Shown here in pieces: positions 7,910 through 61,805 of a stretch of DNA of 64,000 nucleotides (position 1 is the stretch's first letter; each line of letters begins with the position of its first letter). This DNA comes from Escherichia virus TH44, in sequence record MT446415.1; one strand, given 5' to 3'. The notes beneath the pieces were generated by a model. It saw only the letters and a list, made by a program, of their open reading frames with translations. It searched no databases and was not told the DNA's origin. A program made the translations under genes and the position numbers.

Positions 7910-7911
7910 TT

Positions 7912-7987
7912 AAAAAGTAGTGTACATCAGTATGGAGTCTATGTATAATGATTCCATACTGAGTTACCAAACAGACTGGAGAATAAA
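7912..7987 (+). promoter_or_regulatory. early promoter cassette (PeSL-like), type A
   Basis: aaaagtagTGTACA (-35) 17 nt TATAAT 7944-7949, then gattccatactgagttac...ctggagaataaaATG; inverted repeat agtatgga/tccatact flanks -10. Confidence 0.6.
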
Positions 7988-8143
7988 ATGAAACCTGCTC
8001 AATATGCAATGACTTTATACCTTGAAGTTAATGGCGATATTACTGAATTTTTTAAATTAATGCAACAGCGCGGAAAAAGTTTTGCAGTTACTGAGCGTCA
8101 ATTTTACGCTTGCCGTAAAAATACATACAATCGTTATGCGTGA
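7988..8143 (+). CDS. small hypothetical protein (51 aa)
   Basis: ATG at end of cassette, stop 8141-8143. Confidence 0.35.
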   Translation: MKPAQYAMTLYLEVNGDITEFFKLMQQRGKSFAVTERQFYACRKNTYNRYA

Positions 8144-8414: not shown

Positions 8415-8501
8415 GCAGCAAAACCTGGTGTCTTATCTGGATATTGTGTATCCCAGTAATTTGCGTTTGTTTTAGTTTATTATTAATGAAACTTGCATAA
8501 A

Positions 8502-8559
8502 AAAGTGTACATCTCCAGTGGTTGTAGTATAATGAACCTATCAACTACTGGAGATGATT
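8502..8559 (+). promoter_or_regulatory. early promoter cassette (PeSL-like), type B
   Basis: aaaagTGTACa, TATAAT 8528-8533, then gaacctatcaactactggag motif. Confidence 0.55.
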
Positions 8560-8676
8560 ATGAAAAAGTTACTTAAAGCTATTTGGAACATGTTTGTGCT
8601 GTTTGTTGTCCTGAGCATTTTCCCAATTGTTTTTATGATTGACCATGTGCGTGTTTACTTTAACTATTTCTTTTGA
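8560..8676 (+). CDS. small hydrophobic membrane peptide (38 aa)
   Basis: ATG 8560 7 nt after ggag; one predicted TM segment. Confidence 0.3.
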   Translation: MKKLLKAIWNMFVLFVVLSIFPIVFMIDHVRVYFNYFF

Positions 8677-12101: not shown

Positions 12102-12130
12102 AGGACCCTTCAGGGTCCTTTTTTATTTTA
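12102..12130 (+). terminator. intrinsic terminator aggacccttcagggtcct + T-run
   Basis: GC hairpin followed by ttttttatttt. Confidence 0.6.
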
Positions 12131-12217
12131 AAAAAGTAGTGTACAATCCCCTTGTCTTAGGACATAATGATTCCATACTGAGTTACACAATGAATCACAA
12201 AAACTTTGGAGAATAAA
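12131..12217 (+). promoter_or_regulatory. early promoter cassette (PeSL-like), type A
   Basis: aaaaagtagTGTACAa ... CATAAT 12163-12168, gattccatactgagttacac...ggagaataaaATG. Confidence 0.55.
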
Positions 12218-14147: not shown

Positions 14148-14247
14148 GCACGATTTCAATAAGGCGTCTGTCCATAAGGATAAGAAGAAAACTGAAATGC
14201 AGTCCAAACGTAAGCAGAAGCACAAGGGGAATCACTATGAGTCATAA
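14128..14247 (+). CDS. small basic peptide (39 aa)
   Basis: lysine-rich; overlaps previous ORF end in another frame. Confidence 0.25.
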   Translation: MNNLVAKHDFNKASVHKDKKKTEMQSKRKQKHKGNHYES

Positions 14248-14401
14248 CTTAGAGAACACCATCACTGGTCAGCGTACACGCGAGCAGGCTTGCTTTGAGG
14301 AATTCCTTGGAGCTGATTTTAAGTTCCAGGAACCAGTTGAACAGATGTATCAGGAATATGTTGTACAGATGGAAAATCATGTGTACAACCCAGAGGAATA
14401 A
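14237..14401 (+). CDS. small acidic protein (54 aa)
   Basis: ATG 14237; below ORF-track cutoff. Confidence 0.3.
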   Translation: MSHNLENTITGQRTREQACFEEFLGADFKFQEPVEQMYQEYVVQMENHVYNPEE

Positions 14402-14459
14402 TAGTACAATATCCTTACTGAATAATTGAATGTCTTATTGAATACTTGAGTAAATTAAA

Positions 14460-28592: not shown

Positions 28593-28620
28593 GGGGACCT
28601 TCGGGTCCCTTTTTTATTTT
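28593..28620 (+). terminator. intrinsic terminator ggggaccttcgggtccc + T-run
   Basis: GC hairpin followed by tttttatttt. Confidence 0.6.
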
Positions 28621-28697
28621 CAAAAAGTAGTGTACAAGCCCCTTGAGCTAAGGCATAATGATTCCATCAACTACTGATAACAACTGAGGAAATAAAA
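28621..28697 (+). promoter_or_regulatory. early promoter cassette (PeSL-like), type B
   Basis: caaaaagtagTGTACAagcccctt ... CATAAT 28654-28659, gattccatcaactactga. Confidence 0.55.
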
Positions 28698-29784: not shown

Positions 29785-30040
29785 CATGACTAAAGATGAT
29801 TTCCTGGATGCAGTAGAAAAAGCAAGCGAACAATTTGAAGTAATGGGTGTACGAGTTCATAAAGACAGAAATTATGGTCTGGATGTTCAAACATACTCAT
29901 TATGGCTTGTTGGTGAACACAGTCTTGCAACCAATCTTGTTATGGGGGTTGATACTCATCCTTTATTAGTTAAGTTCAGAAGTATGGAAAAAGCCACCAA
30001 GGAAATGATTAAACTTGGCAAATGGCTTGATAAAATTTAA
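29774..30040 (+). CDS. hypothetical protein (88 aa)
   Basis: ORF overlapping previous stop. Confidence 0.5.
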   Translation: MGSNMTKDDFLDAVEKASEQFEVMGVRVHKDRNYGLDVQTYSLWLVGEHSLATNLVMGVDTHPLLVKFRSMEKATKEMIKLGKWLDKI

Positions 30041-30117
30041 AAAGTAGTGTACAACCAAATGGGGCTATGACATAATGGTCCCATACTGAGTTAACAACTA
30101 AAACACTGGAGAATAAA
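30041..30117 (+). promoter_or_regulatory. early promoter cassette (PeSL-like), type A
   Basis: aaaagtagTGTACAa ... CATAAT 30071-30076, ggtcccatactgagttaac...ctggagaataaaATG. Confidence 0.55.
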
Positions 30118-30357
30118 ATGAAATTACAACGTGAGAGCATCAAAGATTCAGAAGTTAAAGGCAAATGGTACTTTACAATCCAGGGTAACAATCCAGAAGC
30201 TCTGGAAAAAGCTGAAGAAACTTTATGTGCGATGGGTTGGAAAGATGAGTGTGATGGTTGTCCTCTTTATGAAGATGGTAGCTCATCTGGTTTCTGGATT
30301 CACCACTCTGATGTTGACCAATTTAAAGCTGACTGGAAAGTCGCTAAGAAAGCGTGA
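30118..30357 (+). CDS. hypothetical protein (79 aa)
   Basis: ORF at end of cassette. Confidence 0.5.
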   Translation: MKLQRESIKDSEVKGKWYFTIQGNNPEALEKAEETLCAMGWKDECDGCPLYEDGSSSGFWIHHSDVDQFKADWKVAKKA

Positions 30358-37177: not shown

Positions 37178-38310
37178 TTGAATTATATGATAACTTAATG
37201 AAGCTTTGCGCCGAATCCGATAAAGGTAAGTTTTTCTATACGGATTTTGTTTCTCCATTTGAAACTAAGTTCCGCATCTTTAGCTATAACTATGCTTCCT
37301 ATAGTGATTGGCTTCTTGATGATGCGCTGGAGTGTCGTGGTATTATGTTTGAAATGGATGCTAATGGCCCAGTTCGCATTGCCGCCCGTCCTATGGAAAA
37401 ATTCTTTAATCTGGGTGAGAATCCAATGACCATGGACCTTAACCTTGATGAGGTTGTCCTGGTTACTGCAAAAGCTGATGGTAGTTTGGTTTCTACTTAT
37501 ATGGACCAGACTAATATCGCCTTTAAATCCAAAGGGTCAATCAAAAGCTCCCAGGCTGCTGAATCCTTGCAGGTGTTTAAACAAGAGCATCGCAGTGCAT
37601 TCAGGGCTCGCGTAACTGAAATCACTGAAGCTGGTTATACATGCAATATGGAATATGTTGCACCAACCAACCGCATTGTTTTGCCTTACCAGGAACGTGA
37701 CCTGATTTTACTGAACGTTCGTCATAATGAAACGGGCGAATATATTCCTTATCAGGAACTGTTCAAAGATGCTGCACTCCGTCCTTTCCTGGTTGAAGCA
37801 TATGACCCGGCGAGCATTGAGAATGTTCGTGGTATGAAAGAGATTGAAGGCTTCGTCTACGAGTTGGCAAGTGGTCAGAAGTTCAAGATGAAAACAGAAT
37901 GGTATTGTGCTCTGCATCATACTAAAGACTCCATTAATAATAATGAGCGACTGTTTGAAGTTGTTGTTGCTGGCGGGGCAGATGATGTTATTGCCATGTT
38001 TACTGGCGATAATTATGCTCGCGAAAAAGTTAATGCCTTTACTGTAACGCATCTGGATTATCTGTCCAATACGCTGGGATTGTTGCTTGATGCTCAGAAA
38101 CAATTGGCAGGAAAAGACCGTCGCGAGTTTGCGATTAAAGGTCAAGAGTTGTGCAAACCATACCCGGGATTGTTCTCCGTATTAATGAACACCTATCAAC
38201 GCCCACAGGAAACTGAACAAACGATTGCTCAAATCAATAAAGTTTTCCTTAAAAATCATAAACTTTACATTCCGTCGGACTACCAAGCGGAAGTAATCCT
38301 TCCTGAATAA
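37174..38310 (+). CDS. rnlA: RNA ligase 1 (tail fiber attachment catalyst)
   Basis: 378 aa; similarity to T4 gp63 (FRIFSYNYASYSDWLL.DALECRGIMFEMD, KEDGSLVSTY). Confidence 0.9.
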   Translation: MIELYDNLMKLCAESDKGKFFYTDFVSPFETKFRIFSYNYASYSDWLLDDALECRGIMFEMDANGPVRIAARPMEKFFNLGENPMTMDLNLDEVVLVTAKADGSLVSTYMDQTNIAFKSKGSIKSSQAAESLQVFKQEHRSAFRARVTEITEAGYTCNMEYVAPTNRIVLPYQERDLILLNVRHNETGEYIPYQELFKDAALRPFLVEAYDPASIENVRGMKEIEGFVYELASGQKFKMKTEWYCALHHTKDSINNNERLFEVVVAGGADDVIAMFTGDNYAREKVNAFTVTHLDYLSNTLGLLLDAQKQLAGKDRREFAIKGQELCKPYPGLFSVLMNTYQRPQETEQTIAQINKVFLKNHKLYIPSDYQAEVILPE

Positions 38311-38315
38311 TAAAA

Positions 38316-38381
38316 AAGGGGTGTACAAGCCCCTTCTTTCTATACATAATGGTTCCATCAACTACTGATGAGGACCAAAAC
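38316..38381 (+). promoter_or_regulatory. terminator-promoter composite (PeSL-like, type B)
   Basis: hairpin aagggg-tgtacaag-cccctt holds the -35 in its loop; CATAAT 38345-38350; ggttccatcaactactgatgagg. Confidence 0.5.
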
Positions 38382-44695: not shown

Positions 44696-45043
44696 ATGAC
44701 CAAACAACATGGATTAAATATGGAATTACCAATTAAAGCAGTAGGTGAATATATTATTTTGGTTTCTGAGCCAAAGCAAGCTGGTGATGAAGAAACTACG
44801 GCATCAGGTATTGTTATCGGAAAACTCCATCAGGGTGAAATCCCGGAGATGTGCGAAGTATTTTCGGTTGGTCCGGATGTTCCTGAAGGTTTCTGTGAAG
44901 TGGGTGATTTGACTCCTCTTCCGGTTGGCAAGATTGCAAACGTTCCGCATCCTCTGGTTGCTCTGGGACTTAAGCAGGCTAAAGAAGTTAAGCAGAAATT
45001 TGTGACCTGTCATTATAAAGCTGTTCCTTGTCTTTATAAGTAA
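44696..45043 (+). CDS. 31: co-chaperonin gp31 (GroES analog for capsid folding)
   Basis: very high similarity to T4 gp31 ([54 protein letters not shown]). Confidence 0.9.
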
Positions 45044-45052
45044 AATTAGCGT

Positions 45053-45060
45053 TATAAATA
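45053..45060 (+). promoter_or_regulatory. candidate late promoter TATAAATA upstream of rIII
   Basis: exact TATAAATA 10 nt after gp31 stop; 155-nt leader with 7-bp long-range inverted repeat ggtggac/gtccacc. Confidence 0.4.
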
Positions 45061-45214
45061 ATAATATGGATTGGTTGATGTCATACAGAGCTTTGCTGGT
45101 GTATGGGGTTAGCCAATCCTAAACGGTGGACTACAACTGAGAGACTTGCCGAAAGGAAGTGAAATTCAGAAGAACGTGTCCACCAAATATTCACCTCATA
45201 TTGAGGCTTCTAAA

Positions 45215-45469
45215 ATGTCTTTAAACAAACAATTACAACACGCTCTTGAACTGCAACGCACTGCATGGAATAACGGTCACGAAAACTACGGCGCATCTAT
45301 TGATGTTGAAGCCGAAGCACTGGAAATTCTGCAGTATTTCAAACATCTTAACCCGGTTCAAACCGACCTTCGCGCAGTGCTCGAAGCAAAAGATGAACTG
45401 AAATTTGCTAAGCCGCTGGCATCTGCTGCCCGCAAAGCTGTTCGCCATTTTGTCGTAACCCTGAAGTAA
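45215..45469 (+). CDS. rIII: rIII lysis inhibition accessory protein
   Basis: 84 aa from MSLNKQLQ; size and position as T4 rIII (82 aa). Confidence 0.7.
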   Translation: MSLNKQLQHALELQRTAWNNGHENYGASIDVEAEALEILQYFKHLNPVQTDLRAVLEAKDELKFAKPLASAARKAVRHFVVTLK

Positions 45470-45866
45470 GTTTTAGGTGATTCGCTACCTTAGTGCGGCT
45501 AGAAAATCGAGGAGCCACCGAATTATCTGATTAATGATTTGCGAATCATTATAGTTTTAGACCCCGATAATTTTGTGGTGTACCTCTTGAATGTTATTCT
45601 TATAGCGGCAAGTGCATGCTACCCCGAGGTGATGGCCAATCGGGAGTACGCCTCAAGGCCTATATATCCATCAGTATATATCTTATCCTCGAGAAATCGA
45701 ACCCGGAACCTTTAAGCTAACGGTGTGCAACAGATAAGAGCTATAAGGTATGATGACGAGGTTTATGGTTATCCTGTCGTTAAATATCCGAAACCTAATG
45801 TTCCCTTCGAGGGCTTGCGCAGGCAATGTCAATAAGTCCTGCATTCTATTTTAAAGAGAATTTAAT
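45470..45866 (+). other. non-coding structured island (no ORF of 60 aa or more in six frames)
   Basis: 397 nt without coding capacity; GC-richer; hairpin 45532-45551; CGAGG at 45508, 45625, 45757, 45808. Confidence 0.5.
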
Positions 45867-46028
45867 ATGGCTAAGAAAGAAGTTAAAGTTGTTGATGGCT
45901 CCTCCAAACGCGCTGGTTACAAGCGTGGGTCCAACAAGCGAATCAATCAGGTAACTGATAAACTTCAGGCTCGTGCTCGTGCGGTATTGCGTGCCGATGC
46001 AGCTTGCTTTGGTAAGCCGAAAGCATAA
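45867..46028 (+). CDS. small basic protein (53 aa, K/R-rich)
   Basis: ATG 45867 after aaagagaattta; followed by strong terminator. Confidence 0.4.
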   Translation: MAKKEVKVVDGSSKRAGYKRGSNKRINQVTDKLQARARAVLRADAACFGKPKA

Positions 46029-46032
46029 GTTC

Positions 46033-46060
46033 AGGGACTCTTCGGAGTCCCTTTTTATTT
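46033..46060 (+). terminator. intrinsic terminator gggactcttcggagtccc + T-run
   Basis: GC hairpin followed by tttttatttt. Confidence 0.6.
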
Positions 46061-46142
46061 TCCATAAAGGGGTTTACAACAGGGTTGGTCCAGTGCATAA
46101 TGATTCCATACTGAGTTACACAATAAAACACTGGAGAATAAA
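46061..46142 (+). promoter_or_regulatory. early promoter cassette (PeSL-like), type A
   Basis: ggGTTTACaac ... CATAAT 46096-46101, gattccatactgagttacac...ctggagaataaaATG. Confidence 0.55.
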
Positions 46143-46511
46143 ATGAAAATCAATCTTAACTCATACATCAAAGGTAAAGACCACGACGGCTACAAAGCAA
46201 TCGAAACTAAAGAGATGCAATGGCACTTGTATAAAGAACAATTTGAATTCGTTTCTTGCATGACTCCAGAAGGTCCTTCTGATGACTTCTCCTGGAAAAT
46301 TATGGTAACAAACTTTTTTACTGGCGACACATATGAATTGAAAACTTTGATTCTTGGTAAGATTCGTTGTAAGACCTATGAAGATGAAGAAACTGGTTAT
46401 TCTGAAGATGTTACATGGTATCAAAATGGTCGCACTACTGCTGATGATTTGATTGAAAAAATGAAAGCTAAGGGTGAATTAAATTTAGATAATTGGATTA
46501 AAGTCGCATAA
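46143..46511 (+). CDS. hypothetical protein (122 aa)
   Basis: ORF at end of cassette. Confidence 0.5.
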   Translation: MKINLNSYIKGKDHDGYKAIETKEMQWHLYKEQFEFVSCMTPEGPSDDFSWKIMVTNFFTGDTYELKTLILGKIRCKTYEDEETGYSEDVTWYQNGRTTADDLIEKMKAKGELNLDNWIKVA

Positions 46512-47467: not shown

Positions 47468-47680
47468 ATGTTTAAGAAACTGATTCAGAAAATTTTGGGA
47501 ACAGAAATGGTTGAAGTTACTTATCGTGTAACAGACGTGAGCCCATGGGCCCGAAATATTGAACCATATACTAAAACAATTAAAATGCTGAAATCTGACG
47601 GTGGATTGTCTATTAAAGACCGTCTACCTGGTTATGGTCATTGGGCTGATGTAGAGATTATCAGCGTCAAAGATATTTAA
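47468..47680 (+). CDS. hypothetical protein, tandem paralog 1 (70 aa)
   Basis: about 45-50 percent identical to next ORF (EMVEVTYRV, SIK.RLP, IISVKD). Confidence 0.55.
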   Translation: MFKKLIQKILGTEMVEVTYRVTDVSPWARNIEPYTKTIKMLKSDGGLSIKDRLPGYGHWADVEIISVKDI

Positions 47681-47689
47681 GGAATCTTC

Positions 47690-47902
47690 ATGATTAAGAA
47701 ATTATTTAAAAAGCTGTTTGGCTTGGAAATGGTTGAAGTGACTTATCGTGTTATTGATTTATCACCGCCATATGCTTGCGATGAAGATGCTATTAAAACT
47801 GTTGTTATGCGAAAAACATATCGCGGGCGGTCAATTAAAGAAAGATTGCCAGACCATGGCATGTGGTATGCAACCAAGATTATCAGTGTCAAAGATGTCT
47901 GA
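47690..47902 (+). CDS. hypothetical protein, tandem paralog 2 (70 aa)
   Basis: see paralog 1. Confidence 0.55.
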   Translation: MIKKLFKKLFGLEMVEVTYRVIDLSPPYACDEDAIKTVVMRKTYRGRSIKERLPDHGMWYATKIISVKDV

Positions 47903-61612: not shown

Positions 61613-61780
61613 ATGTCAGATAAGATTTGTGTTGTCTGTAAAACTCCAATCGATTCTGCATTGGTTGTGGATACAGACCAAGGTCCGGTGCATCCGGGCG
61701 CATGTTATAATTATGTTCAGAGTTTGCCAGTTACGGAAAATACAGAAGAGCAACTGAACGAGACCCAACTTTTAATTTAG
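61613..61780 (+). CDS. small Cys-containing protein (55 aa)
   Basis: ATG after gaggagacaatc SD; CVVC ... GAC motif. Confidence 0.35.
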   Translation: MSDKICVVCKTPIDSALVVDTDQGPVHPGACYNYVQSLPVTENTEEQLNETQLLI

Positions 61781-61805
61781 CTAGTGTTGTTAACCATTTT
61801 TGGTT

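Follow-up and report, generated by a model that had tools for sequence, protein, structure and literature searches.

The closest described counterpart to part of the locus reported here is the pseudo-ToxI of Pectobacterium phage phiTE, a phage-encoded, non-coding and intergenic ToxI repeat. It is transcribed and, when expanded, suppresses ToxN (PMC3475682). Wild-type phiTE, with 1.5 repeats, is aborted; escape mutants have 4.5-5.5 repeats or have recombined with toxI (PMC3475682). In ToxI, the changes C27G and U28A are knock-outs, while shortening of UUU to UU or an additional A at the 3' end does no harm (PMC3475682, Blower et al. 2012). Phage T4 is still blocked by toxIN, the counter being the protein TifA (PMC10853763). 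No pseudo-ToxI outside phiTE was found described in the literature searched. On plasmids, toxI forms arrays of 2-13 tandem units followed by a terminator and toxN.

Other described elements resemble a second part of the locus, module B. Purine and lysine riboswitches have adjacent hairpins joined by kissing loops. Their aptamers share with B a closing helix, paired neighbouring loops, invariant junctions and covarying stems, but helix order and junction topology differ, and B has no Rfam match and no conserved platform or gene association. The T4 species 1 and 2 (rnaC and rnaD) are T4-type stable RNAs of ~120-140 nt that are co-transcribed with other RNAs; however, they lie in the tRNA cluster and not 3' of rIII, and B is absent from T4. 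A relationship of B to rnaC or rnaD was discarded after a search of the T4 tRNA region with the B covariance model R1, filters off, gave at best 6 bits, and not at either gene. Mobile terminator-plus-early-promoter cassettes (PeSLs), which Arbiol et al. 2010 are said to have described in T4-type genomes, are also short non-coding modules shuffled among these genomes, and one copy lies directly 3' of gene 30.9. A PeSL is a simple hairpin plus promoter with many copies per genome, whereas the modules B, A1 and A2 of the present locus are single-copy and B has a complex covarying fold.

Set against these systems, the gap between genes rIII and 30.9 takes RNA mimicry of a type III antitoxin into a new group of phages, in a new architecture that also includes an RNA family without known relatives.

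The rIII–30.9 gap

The window analysed is a stretch of 64,000 nt from Escherichia virus TH44 (MT446415.1), a Gaprivervirus (SP18/VR7-like T4-type). The queried region is 96-99% identical to Escherichia phages TH41 and UPEC01 and Shigella phage SP18. The plus-strand gene order is cd, 31.2, 31.1, 31, rIII, gap, 30.9, terminator, 30.8, and the island starts at the stop codon of rIII (Table 1). An initial annotation of this DNA had reported that 45470-45866 holds no ORF of 60 aa or more; this is correct on both strands and extends across 45470-45942, a span that runs past the start of 30.9 because that gene is shorter than 60 aa. Except at the window edge, no longer stretch of this kind occurs in the window. 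Gaps elsewhere had been put at 0-90 nt, which is too low, since ORF-free stretches of 169-287 nt lie at 7910, 8415, 14148 and 61615. Nor is the island GC-richer than its surroundings, as had been thought: its GC is 0.416, the mean of the window being 0.407, and 44% of windows of its size equal or exceed it; the sole part that stands out is module B, at 0.47. Four copies of the pentamer CGAGG had been placed at 45508, 45625, 45757 and 45808, and all four are there. They are 4 of the 23 plus-strand copies in the 64 kb and fall within 397 nt, a ~30-fold local excess by our own arithmetic; genome-wide, the pentamer is under-represented (34 found vs 57 expected).

By blastn the island is matched in 995 phage records. 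Among 35 viral contigs fetched via the rIII protein, the gap measures 139-462 nt in the 32 that have 30.9. The T4 group is among the best-studied viruses, yet this gap of 140-460 nt is without annotation even in the T4 reference record, where it is 244 nt long, and no description of an RNA at the locus was found in the literature searched. Alignments resolve the island into blocks A1, A2, B, C and D, with X as a short alternative to B in VR7-type phages. The blocks are present, absent or reordered by lineage: the order is A1-A2-C-D in T4 and C-A1-B-D in Klebsiella phages, and the shortest versions consist of D1, C, a single hairpin and the start region. The island had been pictured as a self-contained single unit, which does not agree with modules that are shuffled, gained and lost between relatives. 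A tRNA cluster is inserted at the A1 junction in two contigs.

No promoter-like site was found inside the island, and the sole terminator-like site in 44900-46300 is the one 3' of 30.9. By eye, GTTAAATAT and GGGCTTGCG could be read as late or middle promoters; these readings were dropped because the sites are not conserved in Klebsiella-type loci. ARAGORN found no tRNA gene in the window. Of the checks proposed at the outset, Rfam 15 gave no match at gathering score over the whole 64 kb and, across 44900-46200 with E allowed up to 10, noise only; look-alikes of the hammerhead and the C/D box (CUGAUUA, UGAUGA) were dropped, their core positions being wrong and Rfam silent. Single-sequence folding energy was unremarkable (z = -0.7 for the island, -1.7 for module B). 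These z-scores are weak and were therefore not used as evidence, and the case for structure rests on covariation. In related T4-like phages, compensatory pairs are found in A2, B and C, and all three modules pass the covariation tests, with 0/500 shuffles on four of the five measures (all five for B) and ~25-60% pairing in slid controls. A2, B and C are structured RNAs whose pairing is preserved by compensatory substitutions, and the region is a non-coding mosaic of independently folded plus-strand RNA modules.

A structured non-coding RNA had been among the options listed in the initial annotation, and the covariation supports it. The conclusion is carried by this covariation and not by the evidence first cited; the 8-bp hairpin is only the inner arm of A2. 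The two most informative parts of the region, the ToxI-like unit and the 151-nt domain B, had been missed.

Table 1. Positions of the genes, RNA modules and helices of the rIII–30.9 region in the window
Feature	Position	Strand	Basis or remark
rIII CDS, 5' neighbour	45215..45469	+	ORF list; annotated rIII at the same place in SP18, VR7 and UPEC01
A1, solo ToxI-like unit (pseudo-ToxI)	45475..45508	+	phiTE pseudo-ToxI match, plasmid toxI arrays, alignment A6
A2, branched hairpin	45509..45586	+	covariation; outer stem GAGG/CCUC + 13 pairs; inner hairpin 45532-45551
B, closed 151-nt structured RNA	45598..45748	+	covariation, covariance model
B P0, closing helix	45598-606/45740-48	+	sequence differs in every lineage
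B junction GGCAAGUGCAU, 11 nt, invariant	45607-17	+	
B P1	45618-27/45640-51	+	
B kissing loops (P1 + P2 loops)	45630-35 with 45668-73	+	YGAUGG with CCAUCR
B P2	45661-66/45675-80	+	
B P3	45681-87/45733-39	+	encloses P4 and P5
B P4, GNRA hairpin	45689-92/45697-700	+	
B P5	45701-05/45721-26	+	
C, hairpin 45753-61/45773-80	45753..45795	+	11-nt loop UUUAUGGUUAU, conserved tail GUUAAAUAUCCRAAAC
D + 30.9 translation start region	45803..45866	+	hairpins from alignments
D hairpins	CCCUUCGAGGG (45803-13); GCAGG/CCUGC (45819-23/45838-42)	+	
Gene 30.9, 53 aa, lysine/arginine-rich	45867..46028	+	gp30.9 annotated in SP18, VR7 and T4
Intrinsic terminator, ends rIII-island-30.9 unit	46033..46060	+	repeat families D1/D2

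The ToxI-like unit A1

Module A1 matches the phiTE ncRNA that is annotated 'pseudo-ToxI, weak antitoxin to ToxN' at 25/25 nt. A 33-nt query taken from the A1 copy of a Grimontviridae phage found matches in 108 phage records, the phiTE pseudo-ToxI among them. A1 also matches 36-nt tandem arrays on seven plasmids (2-13 units, counted as matched places per plasmid). Two of the seven plasmids were checked (Pectobacterium, E. coli), and in both the array lies directly 5' of an annotated type III ToxN/AbiQ gene; the remaining array plasmids are from Lelliottia, Hafnia and further Escherichia. Against the plasmid toxI unit AGGUGAUUCGCUACCUU(U)AAGUGCGG...GAAAAUC, identity is ~86% (31/36 positions) and includes the AAAAU cleavage context. 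By these matches A1 is homologous to the 36-nt repeat of ToxI, the antitoxin of type III ToxIN systems, and consists of one unit only. Since Rfam also misses genuine toxI arrays, its silence is uninformative for this class.

The AAAAU motif, of the type cleaved by ToxN, is at 45503-45507 within the 3' border GAAAAUC (45502-45508); the 5' border is UAAGUUUUAGG, without AAAU. The A1 of the window and that of VR7 have CUA at ToxI positions 27-29 (alignment A6), as does the ToxI of pECA1039. The residues required for antitoxicity against P. atrosepticum ToxN, C27 and U28, are kept. The loop is 2 nt shorter than that of ToxI. The phiTE pseudo-ToxI differs in having 1.5 repeats and GAC at positions 27-29, whereas the window has one unit with CUA, the shorter loop and no 5' cleavage motif. 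The setting differs as well, A1 being in a T4-type phage directly 3' of rIII and joined to other structured modules. Unlike the plasmid arrays, the phage unit is solo and has no toxN. It occurs once in the window and once per locus in the relatives read, and tandem repetition of the host kind was found in neither. In T4 the A1 copy is diverged, and a UGC/GCA helix is retained through paired changes. Units of the A1 type are spread over T4-type, Grimontviridae/7-11-like and other lytic phages; the JS98, PG7 and Cronus types are without one.

Some observations tell against an anti-ToxN role of A1, namely the solo unit, the missing 5' ToxN-type site, the shorter loop, the abortion of phiTE when it has only 1.5 repeats, and the fact that T4, with its diverged A1, is blocked.

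The branched hairpin A2

In 17 sequences of A2, 99.1% of the cells of its 25 pairs are paired and seven pairs have changed on both sides, against 25-62% pairing in slid controls. The perfect hairpin taatgatt-tgcg-aatcatta reported in the initial annotation is exactly where it was placed and forms the inner arm, which has two compensatory pairs in a divergent lineage. It had been proposed that the 3' arm could switch to gattcgc at 45479-45485. The complement does exist there, but the alternative pairing is not conserved: JS98-type phages without the upstream segment keep the hairpin, and the loop mutations TGAG, TGTG and TACG are uncompensated. A2 has invariant G-U pairs (G12-U83, G18-U77, U24-G71); read from the opposite strand these would be A-C mismatches, which marks plus as the functional strand. 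No host or plasmid match was found for A2, X, C or D.

Fold and conservation of module B

In B, helix P3 is stacked end-to-end on the closing helix P0 in a four-way junction. The arms and loops do not fit a tRNA, and a tRNA-like assignment was dropped. Among 16 distinct sequences the 47 pairs are 94.7% paired, and 27 pairs have changes on both sides (0/500 shuffles; slid controls 30-43%), counts that may partly reflect few inherited events because the diversity is modest and most copies are >85% identical. The loop-loop pairing is 100% maintained, with three covarying pairs. Between genera B is 78-91% identical, compared with 65-77% for gp31, rIII, 30.9 and 30.8. Rfam 15 returned only noise for B at E up to 10. 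The words GAUGG/CCAUCGG and GAGUAYGCCU of B also occur in the B. subtilis lysC leader; identification of B as a lysine riboswitch from this word similarity found no support in the model search. B is a new, complex and mobile RNA domain with strong support for its structure, tertiary pairing included, and it matches no described family.

These patterns bear on the proposal that the island is a decayed protein gene, an option raised in the initial annotation, or a set of micro-proteins. Small ORFs do exist (58 aa at 45539-45715; 34-36 aa at 45616, 45725 and 45750), some of them annotated in GenBank, and a peptide tail ...VVKYPK..EGLRRQCQ is common to T4 and the window in one frame. In the relatives L028, L029 and L018, however, indels of 1, 2 and 7 nt break the small ORFs in B while the base pairs are kept, the C/D stretch of the JS98-like L066 is frame-shifted relative to T4, and substitutions come as compensating pairs. 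A coding origin is hardly credible, and the decayed gene is rejected.

A role at the level of DNA, as a replication origin, protein-binding site or recombination hotspot, is very improbable. Modules that are shuffled and exchanged, the tRNA cluster at the A1 junction and the neighbouring terminator-plus-promoter cassettes, which are themselves associated with shuffling, would fit such an element. The G-U pairs speak for RNA, since a duplex cruciform or the complementary strand would have A-C mismatches in their place (~15 G-U cells in B would be such mismatches on the opposite strand), as do the loop-loop pairing and the GNRA loop, and no direct-repeat iterons were found.

The modules could also be elements of mRNA processing or stability, RNase III-type sites or barriers to 3' exonucleases that have no specific partner. 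Each is a closed stable stem directly 3' of a stop codon, and the ~25 stacked pairs of A2 resemble the RNase III sites of phage T7. The motif GGAG, the target of the RegB nuclease, occurs in A2 and in P1 of B. A simple barrier, though, needs no invariant junctions, loop-loop pairing or 78-91% identity across genera, the minimum free energy of B is not unusually low (z = -1.7), and the homology of A1 to ToxI is left unexplained. This account is unlikely.

Distribution and transfer of module B

Copies of B are present in 407 phage records of Gapriver-, Tequatro-, Dhaka-, Karam-, Kanagawa-, Roskilde- and Marfavirus type, and it is absent, with clean boundaries, from T4 and VR7. The covariance model R1 has one match in the window and scores 148-179 bits 3' of rIII in 15/35 rIII-bearing loci. 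A1, A2 and B are each single-copy in the window, and B is not always adjacent to A1, as seen in JS98, PG7 and Cronus types. Accessory and horizontally mobile, B is carried by ~400 sequenced therapeutic-type phages, whose hosts include Escherichia, Klebsiella, Enterobacter and Yersinia.

B is also found in the 76-kb Grimontviridae phage PKM.Lu.22.1, where an SSB-like gene precedes it and a gene for an ECF-type sigma factor follows. In this unrelated family it is inserted directly beside a native A1, with the stop codon of the SSB-like gene on its 5' side, and a terminator comes after A1. In the sibling PKM.Hi.22.6 the flanks are 97% identical and exactly the B segment is missing, A1 and the terminator being already in place. 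Since the sibling site has A1 without B, the ToxI-like unit is native to both phage families. B is gained or lost as a discrete cassette closed by P0, also between close relatives. Its position beside A1 in Grimontviridae argues that it works alone, independently of rIII or 30.9.

Searches for B in 5,426 E. coli genomes and 72,556 plasmids gave no match. A scan of 185,579 species genomes (one per species) with a 17-base motif gave 10 hits, which are chance hits by model R1, and degenerate motif scans of viral and metagenome collections returned T4-type copies and chance hits in portal-like genes only. A copy of a host RNA was rejected as the source of B, there being no E. coli, plasmid or bacterial match.

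If B were a riboswitch-type aptamer, a small molecule in the junction would control termination or translation. Its architecture is suited to this, with covarying helices around an invariant junction, a closing helix and kissing-loop hairpins, and in the Grimontviridae phage it lies ~50 nt 5' of an intrinsic terminator and a gene. No consistent expression platform accompanies it, however: B is followed by C, by D', or by A1 and a terminator, and its 5' side varies. The Grimontviridae terminator and A1 exist in the sibling without it, the genes that follow are unrelated and non-metabolic, B is missing from relatives whose 30.9 start regions are identical, and no Rfam riboswitch matches. Control of this kind is quite improbable.

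Modules C and D and gene 30.9

Module C is present in nearly all T4-type loci examined and lies 5' of B in Klebsiella phages. Its six core pairs form in all nine sequences compared, with covariation at three. In D, a small hairpin AUUCU/AGAAU overlaps the purine-rich ribosome-binding site of 30.9. The compensatory differences of D across T4, Klebsiella, Cronus and JS98-type loci come from alignment reading and not from formal counts.

The 53-aa basic ORF and the terminator of the initial annotation are both present. The ORF is no orphan, however, being gene 30.9, known from SP18, VR7 and T4. Its product belongs to PHROG 1427, which holds no informative function, and gave no match in Pfam or the PDB. 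Homologues fall into 32 clusters, mostly from metagenomes; every named one is from a phage, mostly of known T4 type. Together with an early promoter, the terminator makes up a repeated cassette, of which it is the first half.

The whole island could be a long cis-acting 5' leader of 30.9, gp30.9 binding its own leader and repressing translation in the manner of ribosomal proteins or of autorepression by T4 gp32, gp43 and RegA. In every 30.9-containing T4-type locus fetched (32/35) the gap is long (139-462 nt), and C, D and the ribosome-binding-site hairpin are found in almost all 30.9 loci. The lysine/arginine-rich gp30.9 is always encoded immediately 3', and neither promoter nor terminator intervenes. 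The other modules do not fit. A1, A2 and B are dispensable, since T4, VR7, JS98 and the minimal 139-nt versions are without one or more of them; B is closed by its own helix 120 nt from the start of 30.9; and in Grimontviridae B and A1 stand 5' of a sigma-factor gene with no 30.9 homologue nearby. As an account of the entire gap the leader is possible and on balance doubtful; it can hold for C and D and not for the accessory modules. A leader for the basic peptide, as first suggested, may therefore be retained for C and D, which probably serve 30.9 in cis in this way, and is given up for A1, A2 and B.

Proposed model

The reading that we prefer, with a probability of about 0.6, is that the gap encodes a plus-strand string of closed RNA domains within the rIII/30.9 message, in which A1 would bind ToxN, B would be a trans-acting decoy or anti-defence RNA, and C and D would form the leader. 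The gap would be transcribed on the plus strand as part of the predicted rIII/30.9 message; it holds no consensus for a promoter or a terminator. Once a cell is infected, the A1 RNA would bind endoribonucleases of the ToxN family, as the phiTE pseudo-ToxI does. ToxN would cut A1 at the 3' AAAAU and then remain bound to the pseudoknot. A1 could in this way buffer the toxin, or it could seed repeat expansion or recombination with a host toxI; we infer that it acts as a weak ToxN inhibitor or as such a seed.

For B, action in trans is most likely. The kissing loops and the GNRA hairpin would hold its invariant junction and loop nucleotides in place, and a host or phage factor would bind there. 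Our best guess, and the role that we favour, is that of a decoy or anti-defence RNA, because B is associated with A1 and behaves as an accessory, horizontally mobile element. What ties B to defence is this neighbourhood and mobility; a counterpart that it would mimic was not detected in the bacteria searched.

A bolder view, speculative at this stage, takes the rIII–30.9 gap as an RNA-only anti-defence island, a polymorphic array of structured decoys swapped between unrelated lytic families. A1 would then be the ToxI mimic, B, A2 and X might be inhibitors or sponges of other immune proteins or signals, and B might constitute a new class of complex-folded RNA that would disarm a defence system through binding of a protein or a signalling nucleotide.

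Under the preferred string of RNA domains, A1 extends RNA mimicry of type III antitoxins well beyond phiTE, the sole described case, and is a testable candidate for how phages may sample or seed ToxIN resistance. Should B prove to act as a decoy or sponge, RNA counter-defence would gain a new kind; should it instead be a ribozyme or aptamer, its class would be a new one.

Several GenBank records annotate a short hypothetical CDS over the island, and in some records a gp30.9 homologue bears the spurious name '1,4-alpha-glucan branching enzyme'; both annotations could be corrected.

Variation at the rIII-30.9 locus

In several related phages the slot of module B, the 151-nt structured RNA of the island between rIII and 30.9, is occupied by the short module X. 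This replacement is found in VR7 (locus L003) and at the compared loci L063, L066, L071 and L080. The inner stem of X carries a compensatory change, CAGA/UCUG to CAGC/GCUG, and its loop has GGUUA in common with the loop of module C, one of the hairpins preceding 30.9.

Two IMG/VR contigs, 3300045988_074297 and 2974717474 (L095 and L096), have a different order in the region read (~1324-2200): the branched hairpin A2 is followed by C and D, then by the 3' half of rIII in truncated form, and then by a tRNA gene cluster. The cluster starts exactly at the junction of A1, TTTATTGGAGAT. It looks as if a rearrangement brought tRNA genes to the rIII-30.9 locus.

ToxI-like units and ToxI words

Solo ToxI-like units such as A1 are scattered over many unrelated lytic phages, mostly in unannotated intergenic DNA; in the 7-11-like phages the unit has an SSB-like gene on one side and a gene for an ECF sigma factor on the other. 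On the genuine 13-unit toxI array of plasmid pPA21A (L102), Rfam 15 gave no match even at E up to 1, so the standard RNA-family scan cannot see type III antitoxin RNAs. The ToxI core words GCUACC and AAGUGCA both occur in the 5' junction of B (AAGUGCA-U-GCUACC), in swapped order, and this junction adjoins the locus carrying ToxI-like units. The words could be there by chance or be a trace of the origin of B.

Coordinates of the features described (window, unless another record is named)
Feature	Record	Position	Detail
Module X	L003 (VR7)	~1700-1745	45 nt, ACTATCACGCGTCAGAAAAAGGTTATCTGTCTAAGTCGTGGTTG
ToxI-like unit	Salmonella phage 7-11	37668-37698	
ToxI-like unit	Klebsiella phage pzk-kv23		
ToxI-like unit	Vibrio phage RYC		
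ToxI-like unit	Erwinia phage IT22		
ToxI-like unit	Acinetobacter phage Apostate		
toxI array	pPA21A (L102)	440-990	13 units
ToxI words in B		45610-45623	
Cassette copies		7914-7996, 12107-12215, 28598-28667, 30015-30123, 38289-38358, 46040-46148	
Small-gene starts		47468-47529	ATGTTTAAGAAACTG...
		47690-47751	ATGATTAAGAAATTA...
ORF-free stretches		14148-14434, 8415-8638, 7910-8081, 61615-61783	169-287 nt each
Gene 31-rIII gap		45060-45214	~170 nt
Promoter-like match		45033-45062	

Other features of the window

Promoter-early stem-loop cassettes are mobile elements of T4-type genomes, and the repeated cassettes of the window resemble them. Each couples a terminator hairpin to an early-promoter-like sequence, GTGTACAA...CATAATG, and to a common leader with the 3' end ACTGGAGAATAAAATG; one copy lies immediately downstream of 30.9. 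Further along, within the 30.x block, two adjoining small genes are 76% identical at their starts, which indicates a tandem duplication.

Four further stretches hold no ORF of at least 60 aa on either strand. Upstream of the rIII ATG (45215), a gap separates the gene from gene 31, with a sole promoter-like match nearby. The start of rIII differs between records, the CDS being 390 nt in SP18 and UPEC01 versus 255 nt in VR7.

Among the GenBank records under matches H3, H52, H54 and H83, several name the 68-aa gp30.9 homologue P0013 '1,4-alpha-glucan branching enzyme', a spurious designation. In others the non-coding modules are overlaid with short CDS annotated as hypothetical.
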